Source: Iphione sp. A-MEVVRFRX5 (lineage: Eukaryota). Taken from it: a stretch of DNA of 64,000 nt. How positions within the stretch are numbered: the stretch's first letter is position 1; every line of letters begins with the position of its first letter. Shown piece by piece: positions 34,236 through 55,325 of this stretch. Where the stretch lies: the NCBI GenBank assembly GCA_976226885.1, contig OZ320316.1, positions 102,796,001-102,860,000 on the forward strand. Direction: 5' to 3'. The notes beneath the pieces were generated by a model. The model made no database searches. It was not told the DNA's origin and saw only the letters and a list, made by a program, of their open reading frames with translations. The position numbers and the translations under genes were made by a program.

Positions 34236-34241
34236 CTTCTT
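34236..34241 (+). repeat. Left target-site duplication CTTCTT
   Basis: Identical hexamer immediately follows the right terminus (55320-55325); 6-bp TSDs are characteristic of Polinton integrases. Confidence 0.95.
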
Positions 34242-34306
34242 AGTAGTGTGAGGGGAGCAACCTTCAGCTCTCGTTTCGCAGGAAGTGACGTCACCACAGC
34301 AGAGAG
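34242..34306 (+). repeat. Left terminal inverted repeat (65 bp)
   Basis: Exact reverse complement of 55255-55319; similarity continues a few bases (AGAGGTCAA) past an AG-run length difference. Confidence 0.95.
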
Positions 34307-34844
34307 AGAGAGAGGTCAAGGGTCAAGGGTCAAGGGTCGTAGACAGGAAGTGGCGTCATACGTCAGTCACACTTCACACTTCAATAAATATGTCGGGCAA
34401 GTGGAGATAATGATGTAGGTGGAGATGAATAGATAAGAAGGGGGTTGTATCTAGAGTGGAATGTCATAGGCAGGGAATGAAGAGGTCAGATAAGAGTGAT
34501 GTACTCACAGTGTGGAGGATAGGATACTAGAGAGAGAGAGAGAAGTGGTGTTTATAATGAAGGAATACTTGAACGATATTGGTTTTTTTTTTTTGTCGTA
34601 CTGCTTCAGATAGTCAGGTCGTTGTGTAGCGATCCCACTTCACCTCGTTTAATGATTGGAACAGGAACAAATAATGGTGGTGAAAGAGCTACAGGTGTTT
34701 TTTGAACAAAGATGGATCAGACATCGTGGATGACTAATGAGTTAATAAGAACATAAGATAGTACGGCATGTATATATATAACCCTGTACGATGATTGAAT
34801 GGGTAGGATTCGATGTACAAAAACTGCAGCTATACGTACTTATA

Positions 34845-35090
34845 ATGGCTGAGAAGCAAATAGTGGAGGCAAGGAGGTGGTTACGGACTGAGAAGAGTCA
34901 GAAGGAAAGCCGTTGTCAGGACTATGAGGATGGTGAAAGCAGCAGCAAGGTTTCAGTGACAAGGAGGAGGATGAGGAAGAAGAAATTGGTGAAGAGACTG
35001 CGTAGGTGTATGAAAAAACTGAAGAAGATAAAAAAGTCGATCAGGAGGACGAAACAAATGGCAGAGAGGGCTAACTTGTCAAAAGAAGAG
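34845..35090 (+). CDS. Putative exon 1 of spliced pPolB gene (Arg/Lys-rich, MAEKQ...LSKEE)
   Basis: ATG at 34845, open frame to donor GAG|GTGAGT at 35091 (phase 0). Confidence 0.6.
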
Positions 35091-35189
35091 GTGAGTACGT
35101 GTACTGTAAGTTTAGCAAAGTCACACTTGTAGTAGTAAGAGAGCGAGTGAGTGGGTCAGGGAAGTATATATTTGGCATCTTAATTTCAG

Positions 35190-35402
35190 AGGAGTATACT
35201 TAGCGAGTTCATGATGGGATTCGAAGATGAAGCCGTAGGCAGCTGTATGGAGATGGACGAGCCTGAGGGGGTGCAGCAAGTTTGTGTTGAAGAAGAACCA
35301 GTTATTGATGATGGAGTTGTTGTGTTTGAAGAGGCGAGTTGTCCCAGTTACGACGACCTTTCTCAGTTGGATAAAGGAGATTGTTCGAACGTTTTGTCAG
35401 AG
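35190..35402 (+). CDS. Putative exon 2 of spliced pPolB gene (acidic)
   Basis: Acceptor TAATTTCAG| at 35189, in frame with ORF 35211, donor GAG|GTATGT at 35403; 213 nt, phase 0-0. Confidence 0.62.
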
Positions 35403-35625
35403 GTATGTATTGCTTGGTTACAGATCAGCTTGACTCAGAAAGTAAAGTTGAGGTTTTATTAATCAAGTGACACGTAGATAGTTGTAGGTTATGATTGAAA
35501 CTACACACATATATATAATTGATGATCCATGTTAGTAAGTAGCTAAATAGAGTTCATTCAGTATAATGACTTGATTTTCATAAGTGTAGTGCAACTGCGA
35601 GTAACCGCTATTAAATTCATTGTAG

Positions 35626-35826
35626 CAAACGGGTGACGGAGATCAGAACATCGTCAGTAGTTGCAGTCATAGTTCGTCAAAGGTGTCATCATGCAGTGAC
35701 GAGGTAGCTGCAGCAGTAGCATCAATAACACCGCAAAATGTTGTTCAAGGAACGGATGCAGCATCTGTTTTGACGTCAGCAACGGCAGCATCAGCTTGGC
35801 AGGGACAGCTCATATCTCCTGTTCAA
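35626..35826 (+). CDS. Putative exon 3 of spliced pPolB gene (Ser/Ala-rich)
   Basis: Acceptor TTCATTGTAG| at 35625, open and in frame with ORF 35683, donor CAA|GTAAAG at 35827; 201 nt, phase 0-0. Confidence 0.5.
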
Positions 35827-51479: not shown

Positions 51480-53403
51480 GATATCAAGAGTATCATGTGA
51501 TAATCCCCCCAGAATTAATATCTATTGGGCTACATATGGATAGAAATATATCCATCCCATTGCTATCAAGAAATTTCCTGCCTACAGGCCGGTACATCCC
51601 TTTTATGCTCTATCATTTACTATAGGCAACCCAAGACGAATCCGAATAGACGAAAACGACCGTGAACCTGGCTTGAACTGTTATTAAGGACTCCAACTAC
51701 CTGGACGACTGACTTTGCCGATTTGCCATCTTTACAACCAAGTGCGGCATGTATACGCTGTTTTAGACATTCTTTCAACCACACACTACTTGTATTAGTA
51801 CTCGCAGACTACCTAACACGCGTGGTCTGTCACCAGGTCAGACACATCATGCCTATGTGTGATCCAGCACCTGCATCCACATCCTGCAGTCCTGGTGAAC
51901 AGCACTCAACTCCATCCACCGAAATGACTTTGGATTCAGTCGCCCCACCTTCTGGTGGAGACATCCTGCTTGCACCACCTACTGACATCGTGTTGTATAC
52001 ATACACCTCACACTCGTATTCTCACTGTCACGTACACACACACACACACACCCACACCCACACACATACCCACACCCACACTGAACATACACGTACACAT
52101 ATCCATACACACACCCATACACATACGTGTGTAATCGTTGTAGAATACATCTTGCTCTGTCTATACTGAGTAACGCTAACAAAAAAGACAATGCCCACAC
52201 ACACGAACTTGAGTGGTTATATAACACTCTTTATTCCAGCGAGTATTTGCGATTTATAGCTTCACCAGTAACAACATCACTTGTACCTCAGTATATGTTA
52301 TTCGCTTTTTTTTTTTTTTTTTTTTGGTGGACCAACTGTTGATACATTGTACCAACTGACTACTTGAGGTGTACTATTCTCACTTATCTATTCTAGAAGT
52401 GTAGTGCCTTATGTTACCCATACTTATGATAATCCAGGTTCATATATTGTGCATGCATTACATATTACGGTATCCTTTGTAAACATAGTACTCAATCTTG
52501 TGCATGCGCTACACCGTGTCCTGTTGGAACTCAATCTATTCTACTGACATATTGAGACTGTCCCTCCAACTCGATCACTAAGCACTAGTACTACTACTAC
52601 TACTTGTATATGCGTTGAACTTCACATGTCAGTTGTCCTTCGATGCCACTCATACGACTACTGCTAGACATAATTGTGGTATTATAATATATAATTGTTT
52701 CTACTAGTACTTATATATCTCTCTATATCTAAATAACGTACTCAGGCGCGGATTAGTTGCCACCTGTATGATGTTAGCTCATCTATTTGGCTGTGCACTC
52801 CTTAATTAGTATAGCATAATATTTATCTGTTAAAGCTGACGATTCGGTGATACCTCAGAGAACACACATTAGCCACTCGTAATCATCTCAGCTACTACAC
52901 GCACAAAACATTGCGTTCGTGTTGCTACATATCTATCCTAGAGTAAGCCTAGTAGTGTGACGTGCCCATGCATGAGGCTAGTTATATGTACGGTATTATA
53001 TACTACTACTTCTACTACGACTAGTTATATATATACAACATTATCTTCACACTACATCTAGCTCAACGTACTTGGATGAGCATTACTCAACATCTGTGTG
53101 ACTTTAGCTCATTTATTAACCTGTGCTTACTTGAGCAGTAATGCATATATATACCTGTTGAGGATGACGAGTCGATGACATCTCAGGGATTACACGTAAT
53201 CACTCGTAATCATCGCAGTTATACACGCACAAACCACACTAGTGTTACTACATATCTATCCTAGAGTAAGTCTGATAGCGTGTTAAACATTGCATATGAG
53301 TAACTACTATATATGTAGACTTAGACGTTCCTAACCATGTAGAAGGAGGTATAATAAACAATATTACACTTACATTTCTGTGTTCAGCCTCATGTTTGTT
53401 ACG

Positions 53404-54151
53404 TTACATCTTCCTCAGGACATCAAAATCCTTCTCCAACGTCATCACAAGATACGCGCCTGCTTCTTTCTCACCATCGTCTAGTACTTGCACGCACAAC
53501 TCCTTTCTTATGGGGACCCACTCAAAATCATCACCATCATTACAACTACTACCACTACTAGTCGCATAGATCTTATACATCAGCTTGCCTCCCTCCATCA
53601 ACCTCACCAGCGAAATCCGTATATGAGCAGCATGCAACAGACCTAAATCAGTGTCTTCAGGAAGGCCCAAACAGCCAGGTACATGACTAGCCTGGCCCTC
53701 TACTCTTAGTTCACAACCATTACAGTTCTCCCTCACTCTATTTTTGTATTCCCTGTACAAAAACCATGCATACGTCTTTTCAACAATCTCCTTCACAGAA
53801 ATCGACGCAGATACTTTGTTAAATTCTATCATCTCGTTCACCCCCTGTTTAGCAGATGCTTCTGATGCACACAGCTCATGAGAAATAAACTCATCGTCAC
53901 AACTTGTCACAGCCCCATCTATACATGATACTAGCTGATAACTGTTCCTTGTATATTTAACAACCTCACACGATCTCCTCCTCCTGCCGCTTGATCTCCT
54001 CCTCTTCCTCCTGGCTGGCTGAGGCTCATCAACCTCCTCCTCTTCTGTGTCCGAGTCAGAGAAATCCAACAGCCCTCTCCGACGCCGCCCCCTCTTCATC
54101 ATCGCAATAATTTCAAGGGCCTCGTCCTCCATCAAGTTAAAGCAGTCATTG
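53404..54151 (-). CDS. Right-arm regulatory protein, last exon (end of PC4-like domain, basic/acidic linker, CNGC...H...C motif)
   Basis: ORF 53404-54135 extended to acceptor TTGCTTACAG| at 54152; NLS-like RRKRRR, acidic DSDTEEEE, ENCNGCELRVEGQASHVPGCLG. Confidence 0.75.
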
Positions 54152-54311
54152 CTGTAAGCAAAAAGGTAACATTTATTATGTTGTGTACAATGCCAGCCTG
54201 CTCAACACCCTACAGCAATGTCAATAAAATAATAATATAATAATAATATAATAATAATAATATAATAATAATAATATACATTAATATTAGTAGTTGCAAT
54301 GCTATACTCAC

Positions 54312-54617
54312 CTTACACGTACGCCGGCTCGAGTTTCTCTCGTAAAGCTGATATATTCCCTCCCCGCATAGGTCTTCAGCCCCAAGGCCCACTGCTTGTG
54401 AGCGATGATCACTCTCTGCTTCTCTCCAGACTGTATCTTATCCCACAGATTATCGCATTCTTCAAACAATTTCCGAAACACTTTGATACGCCTGATAACT
54501 TCACCATCCCTTCTCCTCTCTATCTTCACCGATGTGTCAGTGAATTCGACAAAAATGTTTTTTGAGACCTCTTCCATCTCTCGAATGTCAATGCCCCAAA
54601 AGCAAATGTACGAATAA
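54312..54617 (-). CDS. Right-arm regulatory protein, upstream exon (PC4-like)
   Basis: ORF 54308-54625 with GIDIRE and LKTYAGREYISF; donor AG|GTGAGT at 54311 joins the 54152 acceptor in phase 2 across an (AAT)n-containing 160-bp intron. Confidence 0.65.
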
Positions 54618-55254
54618 CTAAACACGATCTCAACTCACACATTATATACACAGTCTCATATCACATGTTAATCACTCCAAGCCCCCTCAAGTGTGTTCAA
54701 AACACTTCATCAATCCTACTCCTACCGTTTATTAAACCTGTTATCTCCTTCCCCCACTACATACCACTCGTCTACTTTGACAAAAACACTTGGTTCATTA
54801 CCCTTGCGTTTTTTATTATACTTCAACTATATCATATTCGCTATCTACTTCACCTCTACTTGCCCCCTATCCCTCATACCTCAATCTCTTGTCGGTCATG
54901 AACCTGACTCTTAATCTGCGACACAACTCCAATAGTCTTCAGTTATCTCTGTTCTGTTTCATTGTTCTTCTGCTGTCCTCATCTCACCTCCCTTGTTATC
55001 CTTACGTACTTATAAACTTGTTCGACTGCTGTCCTCATCTCACCTCCCTTGTTATACTTACGCACTTATAAAACCACTCTAGTACGTATCTGATAGATAA
55101 CTGGTGCCATGCCCTCTTTGTTACTTTTTGTGGGTACCTTTGTGACGTCACTACCAATGATCACTGTGAACACTTGACCTCTCTTTAACCACCCCCCCCC
55201 CCCACCGAACACTTAACCTCTTTCTGACATCACTTCCTCTGACCTAGTATTGAC

Positions 55255-55319
55255 CTCTCTGCTGTGGTGACGTCACTTCCTGCGAAACGAGAGCTGAAGG
55301 TTGCTCCCCTCACACTACT
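55255..55319 (-). repeat. Right terminal inverted repeat (65 bp)
   Basis: Exact reverse complement of 34242-34306. Confidence 0.95.
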
Positions 55320-55325
55320 CTTCTT
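55320..55325 (+). repeat. Right target-site duplication CTTCTT
   Basis: Matches 34236-34241. Confidence 0.95.

Follow-up and report, generated by a model that had tools for sequence, protein, structure and literature searches.

A young Polinton of Iphione sp. with a NADAR domain on its DNA polymerase and a predicted spliced polymerase start

A 64,000-nucleotide stretch of contig OZ320316.1 from Iphione sp. A-MEVVRFRX5 (assembly GCA_976226885.1, positions 102,796,001–102,860,000; the window, numbered here from its first base) contains a Polinton/Maverick element that spans positions 34242–55319 (21,078 bp). The element belongs to this class on every feature tested and is, with little doubt, a young integrated copy of an autonomous animal Polinton (polintovirus). 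The NADAR tail of its family B DNA polymerase (PolB) and the probable spliced start of the same protein, not the intact core, set the element apart, and both were missed by the original prediction. The best overall explanation (probability roughly 0.6) is a young Polinton whose PolB obtains its start by splicing and carries a NADAR domain that binds ADP-ribose or a nucleotide. An intact element alone would be one more copy of a known class; the PolB–NADAR fusion matters more.

NADAR domain at the C-terminus of PolB

The C-terminal region of PolB belongs to the NADAR superfamily and adopts the YbiA fold. Pfam profile PF08719 matches it with 49.3 bits against a cut-off of 35.1 (E 8e-13), and profile matches are obtained to the Protein Data Bank (PDB) entries 8bau (E 3e-15) and 2b3w (E 3.5e-11); the NADAR sequence alone finds no match among PDB sequences. 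The structural model has a mean predicted local distance difference test (pLDDT) score of 86, and in a Foldseek search 8BAU (root-mean-square deviation (rmsd) 2.9 Å) and YbiA are the only two good PDB matches. The window domain retains the equivalents of residues E43, W89, R93, D130 and W133 of 8BAU, whose numbering is taken as chain position minus 2, a choice that fits five residues. In 8BAU, the W89, R93, D130 and W133 residues (Trp, Arg, Asp, Trp) hold the pyrophosphate (PMC11543638; here and below, published sources are cited for the available parts of their text). An active hydrolase would carry E43, K50 and an acid or His (E, D or H) in the last strand at the E125 position. The window domain has one of these three, the E43 equivalent, and the K50 and E125 equivalents are replaced by Met and Phe, respectively.

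The fusion is shared with other polymerases. Seventy of 155 retrieved proteins (5 + 150) span PolB and NADAR, 74 match no further than the PolB terminus and 11 could be placed in neither group, with the fused share inflated by a query that included NADAR. A FastTree phylogeny was built from 122 sequences and 323 columns, with 70 short and 13 possibly cut rows left out. The fusion label changes 17 times on this tree, compared with a mean of 38 and a minimum of 30 for shuffled labels. The window polymerase groups with the fused P0001, P0008, P0007 and P0015 proteins (support 0.975), and the deep nodes are weak. An old fusion followed by repeated loss would be the simplest reading of this pattern, with repeated gain as a possible alternative. 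Across the fusions, the NADAR fold appears to be conserved and the usual chemistry mostly not. No paper on a PolB–NADAR fusion in Polintons was found in the open-access literature, figures and bioRxiv supplements excepted.

The pocket residues and the altered catalytic set tilt the assignment toward a domain that would bind ADP-ribose or a nucleotide without cutting it. A less probable reading is that the domain has kept hydrolase activity through a remodelled site, using another acid in place of E125 or another substrate such as cytidine-ADP-ribose, and counters a DNA ADP-ribosyltransferase of the host defence. The fold prediction is confident, the catalytic acid shifts position among NADAR subfamilies (PMC11543638), phage orphan NADARs act against DarT1 (PMC11825919), and the fusion is retained across polymerases that are only ~30–50% alike, all of which would suit continued activity. 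However, K95, the K50 equivalent of a tested enzyme, is essential there (PMC11543638) and is Met in the window. Among the 70 fused homologs, moreover, E43 is present in 19, K or R at position 50 in 29, both in 10 and all three catalytic residues in only two (P0013 and P0025), and no host DNA ADP-ribosyltransferase was identified in this analysis.

Slightly less probable again is a purely structural part, in which the domain supports the polymerase or clamps it to DNA and has lost its link to ADP-ribose. The best-kept columns are indeed fold residues (Gly, Pro, Leu and a G-x-N-x-L-G motif), the domain looks shrunken by eye in five homologs, and the fusion label changes repeatedly on the tree. 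Against such a role, 63, 41 and 40 of the 70 homologs retain the pocket residues W89, D130 and W133, respectively.

N-terminal region of PolB and its predicted spliced leader

The PolB frame is open from position 36225, and its first ATG lies at 36807. Three C2H2 zinc fingers and a region conserved in relatives (36276–36806, 177 codons) are located upstream of the first ATG and contain no Met; in nine of 10 relatives, an in-frame Met precedes the fingers. Downstream, the vOTU-type Cys/His motifs, Exo I–III and Pol A–C were located, and a VSR-like motif after Pol A was judged by eye, with weak Pfam hints. The terminal-protein region is a tentative assignment from position. Pfam PF03175 does not match the window PolB itself. 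Its homolog P0004 carries PF03175 and Foldseek gives viral PolB matches, which together with the motifs identify the protein as a protein-primed family B polymerase.

The left 2 kb of the element is not empty and contains likely in-frame exons. The three top-scoring of 176 GT sites fall in a single phase-0 parse and are three of the four donors. GT-AG introns of 99, 223, 60 and 257 nt would separate the four candidate leader exons and connect them in phase 0 to position 36276. At a penalty of 4, the best splice parse scores 12.6, compared with a mean of 3.4 and a maximum of 11.5 in 100 shuffles (0 of 100 reach it); at a penalty of 6, the score is reached by two of 100 shuffles. The leader exons have a GC content of 0.46–0.48 versus 0.32–0.40 in the introns, and GC played no part in the choice of sites. 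In the closest relative (P0161), the residues just ahead of the fingers, at the corresponding position, resemble the translation of a pyrimidine tract followed by CAG. The spliced PolB is predicted to contain ~1,800–1,880 amino acids (aa), and intronless PolBs of relatives with long leaders contain 1,774–2,108 aa (L003, 1,838 aa; L004, 1,774 aa; L055, 2,108 aa). The PolB start is predicted, with reasonable confidence, to be supplied by three or four spliced in-frame leader exons.

Two acceptor-like stretches that resemble each other (36130–36160 and 36265–36300) precede the zinc-finger exon. The first of them (acceptor at 36142) has the higher score, but stops intervene between it and the main exon.

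Intact vertebrate Mavericks are described as lacking introns (PMC8097293), and no title on Polinton gene splicing was found among the matches listed for the open-access literature, a scope that excludes Repbase notes. A spliced PolB start, if true, would mean that screens based on single open reading frames (ORFs) for intact versus broken Polintons misjudge such elements.

Termini and age of the element

The element is bounded by terminal inverted repeats (TIRs) that are 100% complementary over 65 nt and end in AGTAGT, and a 6-bp target-site duplication (TSD), CTTCTT, flanks both ends, so the identical TIRs and perfect TSD proposed originally are borne out. A 21-nt TIR probe (up to three mismatches) matches at the two TIRs only, and two matches were obtained in 0 of 100 shuffles. 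The left TIR contains the GGAAGTGACGTCA motif, which we take to be ETS plus ATF/CRE-like. The size had been placed at the large end for Polintons; at 21,078 bp, it is within the 12.7–24.6 kb range of intact vertebrate Mavericks and ~2.5 standard deviations above the 16.9-kb mean of the same elements (PMC8097293).

Just inside the TIRs (34307–34345 and 55215–55254), an AG repeat has a different length at each end, after which the same few bases return, and a GGAAGTG motif is repeated in both stretches. The TIR may once have been longer than 65 bp. Along the element, the GC skew is positive in the left 9 kb and negative in the right 10 kb, with a switch near 44 kb.

A recent insertion, as first proposed, is supported. 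The 71 nt of TIR and TSD contain no differences, which bounds divergence only to <4.1%, a loose limit because the TIR is short. The 10,089 core coding bases are free of stops, and neutral decay beyond 0.64–0.86% substitutions per site would leave them so with a chance of <5%. The observed/expected CpG ratio is 0.80 in the core versus 0.60 and 0.56 in the flanks. At substitution rates of 1–3e-9 per site per year, the insertion would be at most a few to ~nine million years old and possibly far younger.

Integrity and replication competence

The core ORFs all lie on the plus strand and are stop-free, and their overlaps (ATGA at 42376, 16 nt at 42768–42783 and 20 nt at 45990–46009) are exactly as originally described. 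The window proteins deviate from conserved columns at 8 of 153 positions in PolB (5%), 4 of 35 in the ATPase (11%), 5 of 47 in the major capsid protein (MCP; 11%) and 1 of 15 in the protease (7%), all within the range of their homologs.

The description of the element as fully intact is too strong. It is not demonstrable because a run of 178 N interrupts the sequence and the PolB start is only predicted. An intact Maverick is defined in PMC8097293 by conserved core ORFs that are intronless; the window PolB lacks a start codon in frame before the conserved N-terminal part and is either spliced or defective, which places the element outside this strict definition. Intactness itself is unsurprising, since 134 intact vertebrate Mavericks are recorded (PMC8097293). 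For adintoviruses, the presence of particles has been inferred in insect cell lines (PMC8502044). The element is probably a young, replication-competent provirus as judged from its sequence. Replication of this particular copy is slightly favored, and its ability to make particles would be somewhat short of an even chance.

Several observations weigh against the reading of a young, competent Polinton with a spliced, NADAR-bearing PolB. The best splice parse omits exon 3, leaving one of the four leader exons with weak sites, and the splice weights are rough frequencies applied in a test that was run after the sites had been seen and was not blind. The fusion is absent from all 80 loci fetched by PolB motifs, and the 36 locus polymerases in the tree all lack NADAR, so the domain is dispensable in many Polintons. 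The 178-N gap (51302–51479) lies inside the element within a Pro-rich accessory frame and hides how complete and how long the element is at this point. After the gap, a coding-looking stretch (~51627–51790) has a possible in-frame stop near 51685 and no homolog by which to judge it. The Gly-rich insert of the MCP is not found in the closest relative. Finally, 16 of 58 conserved columns (28%) are not matched by the integrase, a share near the top of the 2–39% range of 11 homologs, in a homolog set that is distant and biased to one clade.

Some of these points fit a recent insertion that is already replication-dead, with a PolB that has no usable start, accessory genes that are breaking and leader exons that are chance or leftovers. 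The lack of an in-frame ATG over 177 conserved codons, where nine of 10 relatives have one, agrees with such early decay, as do the stop near 51685, the triplet-repeat expansions in the MCP and ORF135, and the finding that 96% of vertebrate Maverick loci are defective (PMC8097293). Early decay is nonetheless considered unlikely: the splice parse outscores shuffles and fits the GC pattern, the core bases contain no stop, the deviations of PolB, ATPase, MCP and protease are ordinary for their families, and the triplet repeats preserve the frame. An old insertion maintained (domesticated) by the host, with frames kept open through host selection, would account for host-like introns and membrane proteins but is highly improbable given the perfect TIRs and TSD, the wholly open viral module, a CpG ratio above flank level and the same kind of membrane proteins in relatives.

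Core genes and gene order

The features of the element are listed in Table 1. The virion gene set, consisting of a double jelly-roll MCP, a compact penton, an adenain-type protease and a packaging ATPase, is encoded as the original claim of virion competence requires.

Table 1. Features of the Polinton and its target site (window coordinates)
Feature	Position	Strand	Basis or remark
Left TSD, CTTCTT	34236..34241	.	sequence
Left TIR, 65 bp, AGTAGT end, GGAAGTGACGTCA motif	34242..34306	+	
Predicted PolB leader exon 1, basic, start ATG 34791 or 34845	34791..35090	+	donor 35091, top of 176 GT (7.3 bits), phase 0, GC 0.46
Predicted PolB leader exon 2, acidic	35190..35402	+	second-best donor of 176, both ends in phase 0
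Possible PolB leader exon 3, weak sites	35626..35874	+	open, phase 0, GC 0.46; acceptor -0.7, donor 1.4 bits
Predicted PolB leader exon 4	35935..36018	+	donor rank 3 of 176, phase 0, GC 0.48
Main PolB exon: zinc fingers, putative terminal-protein region, vOTU-type motifs, Exo I–III, VSR-like insert, Pol A–C, NADAR	36276..41087	+	
C-terminal NADAR (YbiA-fold) domain of PolB, ~155 residues	40620..41087	+	
A32-like packaging ATPase, 210 aa	41169..41801	+	Pox_A32 E 0.001, under curated cut-off; 33–45% identity to ATPases of related loci
Conserved small Polinton protein, 187 aa	41816..42379	+	alignment with six locus homologs
135-aa protein (ORF135), ATGA-coupled	42376..42783	+	ORF of 112–135 aa at same place in relatives
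RVE (DDE) integrase with C-terminal chromodomain, 366 aa	42768..43868	+	Pfam rve and Chromo over cut-off
Compact minor capsid (penton) protein, 136 aa, no insertion domain	43902..44312	+	alignment and position
Basic protein, 101 aa	44316..44621	+	short conserved motif matches three loci, same position
Double jelly-roll MCP, 460 aa, Gly-rich insert of ~29 aa	44627..46009	+	
Adenain-type cysteine protease, 165 aa, His/Asp/Gln/Cys motifs	45990..46487	+	African swine fever virus S273R match, E 0.0025
Accessory type I membrane protein, 402 aa: signal peptide, Cys-rich leucine-rich repeat (LRR)-like head, S/T stalk, one transmembrane helix	47106..48314	-	hydropathy
Second type I membrane protein (48878–49774), possibly spliced to Pro-rich frame (50057–51625) across gap	48878..51625	+	
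Assembly gap, 178 N	51302..51479	.	
Right-end gene, two predicted exons (54577–54312 and 54151–53404), conserved CxGC...GCL motif	53404..54577	-	
Right TIR, 65 bp	55255..55319	-	
Right TSD, CTTCTT	55320..55325	.	sequence

The MCP model has moderate confidence (pLDDT 59.5, five sequences) and matches the MCPs of PBCV-1, Sputnik and mavirus (best E 3.5e-13). The protease alignment with S273R covers the His and Cys motifs. The 136-aa penton is identified as a single jelly-roll minor capsid protein by sequence alignment and position: it aligns end to end with ORFs of 137–151 aa at the same position in five loci and with both ends of the 254–262 aa pentons of three loci. A homolog search with the penton confirmed none of 15 candidates, and the Atlas leads score <0.9. 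Truncation of this protein was rejected, as the five relatives have similarly short ORFs. The conserved small protein is ~80 aa longer than its homologs (107–114 aa) owing to a low-complexity tail, and the basic 101-aa protein is a probable virion core protein. Two frame-keeping triplet repeats are observed, GGA x11 at 45311 in the MCP, whose insert is modelled in a low-confidence loop between two strands, and AGT x12 at 42469 in ORF135.

The gene order is common to L003, L004, L006, L008, L009 and L055, six of the loci recovered in a metagenome scan from which the best 80 of 228 confirmed relatives were kept. In IMG/VR, none of 27 candidate stretches matched the MCP, none of 128 gave a PolB alignment, and the TIR probe had no match. 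The closest relative (50% identity; P0001 and P0156 clusters) is present as several near-identical copies on megabase contigs; the clusters contain six PolB and seven MCP members, and both whole and fragmented copies are present.

Accessory genes and flanking sequence

For the 402-aa membrane protein, the Atlas points to LRR proteins (0.91), although few features contribute to this lead. In the second membrane protein gene, a tentative intron (49678–50010) joins matching phases and has a GC content of 0.34 versus 0.48 and 0.55 on its two sides, and its donor is weak. The right-end gene contains the top donor (7.7) and acceptor (6.7) of a 2-kb stretch with matching phases, and its CxGC...GCL motif matches L013 and L019. 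These two accessory genes also look spliced from their predicted sites. By eye, the 89-aa exon at the right end looked PC4-like, but Pfam gave no match and this reading was discarded. Two 55-bp repeats (93% alike) at 54962–55072 each contain a strong minus-strand donor (54987 and 55043) and may serve the right-end gene as 5′ leader exons.

Membrane proteins with a signal peptide, a Cys-rich region and an S/T stalk are also observed in relatives (L003:2596-3402, L004:2550-3614, L005:1552-2859, L006:1522-2619, L009:3975-5270 and L055:4885-5829), so the accessory type recurs. A profile of these six locus proteins matches the two window proteins non-significantly (E 0.15 and 0.29), and shared architecture rather than homology is therefore claimed. 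A function at the cell surface or in immunity is possible for these recurrent membrane proteins.

A diverged tandem duplication of ~325 bp (52690–53340; pieces 71–90% alike) is AT-rich and has no long ORF. The flanks contain a 64-bp tandem array (20351–21290), a 230-bp array (9736–11221), a CAC-rich array (59457–60776), many microsatellites and two more N runs (25444–25673 and 61240–61370). No host genes were recognized among 102 flank frames judged by eye. The one Rfam match, to mir-297, falls on a GT/AT-repeat stretch and was rejected; it scores 38.6 bits, and the cut-off is 90.

Proposed mechanism

By the known biology of the family, the integrase would insert the linear genome with a 6-bp TSD, the protein-primed PolB would copy it from its AGTAGT ends, and the ATPase, MCP, penton and protease would build the particle. 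Transcription by host RNA polymerase II would run inward from promoters close to both TIRs, and splicing of three or four phase-0 leader exons onto the zinc-finger exon would supply the PolB start. The fusion of NADAR is probably old, and the domain was probably at first a hydrolase that freed template guanines of ADP-ribose at the replication fork; in this lineage, it lacks the usual catalytic set and would most likely be an ADP-ribose- or nucleotide-binding module rather than a standard hydrolase. A guanine-specific DNA ADP-ribosyltransferase is known from a clam. Animals also make the guanine-specific enzyme pierisin, and the guanine ADP-ribose lesion stalls replication in bacteria (PMC11125620).

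A broader proposal, which we regard as doubtful, is that a broad, old group of animal Polintons uses a PolB-borne NADAR as a counter-defence that removes or senses template ADP-ribose and has spliced early genes at both genome ends, as in adenoviruses. If the counter-defence were true, it would point to an unrecognized invertebrate antiviral DNA ADP-ribosylation system parallel to that of DarT against phages. The role of NADAR in animals is described as unclear (PMC11125620), and a NADAR fused to a viral replicase offers a testable place for DNA ADP-ribosylation in animal–virus conflict, with P0013 and P0025 as natural fused versions that contain the full catalytic set.

Comparison with known systems

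The element shares with vertebrate Mavericks (Barreat and Katzourakis 2021, PMC8097293) its (AGT)2 ends, 6-bp TSD, TIR and size within range, and the PolB, ATPase, integrase, penton, MCP and protease genes. It differs in its predicted introns, the C-terminal NADAR of PolB, the compact 136-aa penton and a short TIR. All of its core genes lie on one strand, an arrangement reported among vertebrate Mavericks only for Xenopus tropicalis in the available text.

The vOTU-type Cys/His, Exo and Pol motifs of the window PolB correspond to the TP-vOTU-EXO-PALM arrangement of protein-primed PolBs (Krupovic et al., bioRxiv 10.1101/2024.03.18.585575), and the VSR-like motif after Pol A corresponds to the HNH or VSR inserts described by Jeong et al. 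(2023, PMC10748475). Relative to those polymerases, the window PolB adds N-terminal zinc fingers, a leader and the C-terminal NADAR. Neither source mentions a C-terminal NADAR in its available text: ADP-ribosylation is absent from the text searched, and NADAR and YbiA do not occur in the supplement text of PMC10748475.

The NADAR fold is the same as that of Phytophthora nicotianae NADAR (PDB 8BAU) and E. coli YbiA (2B3W), with rmsd values of 2.9–3.0 Å and shared E43, W89, R93, D130 and W133 equivalents (Schuller et al. 2023, PMC11543638). Unlike these proteins, the window NADAR has replaced K50 and E125 equivalents, is fused to a DNA polymerase and has no partner toxin. In nidovirus replicase polyproteins, NADAR is likewise tied to the replication machinery of invertebrate viruses, and unusual substitutions are reported for the inserted nidovirus-type domains (PMC11848433). 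The nidovirus domain is, however, part of an RNA virus polyprotein, whereas the window domain is located on the DNA polymerase of an integrating DNA virus.

The mRNAs for the adenovirus E2B polymerase and terminal protein take their start from an upstream spliced exon. Adenovirus E2B thus likewise combines a protein-primed polymerase with a start from a spliced upstream exon, as predicted for the window. In the window, by contrast, the leader would add ~200–280 residues, and the terminal protein and polymerase would form one chain.

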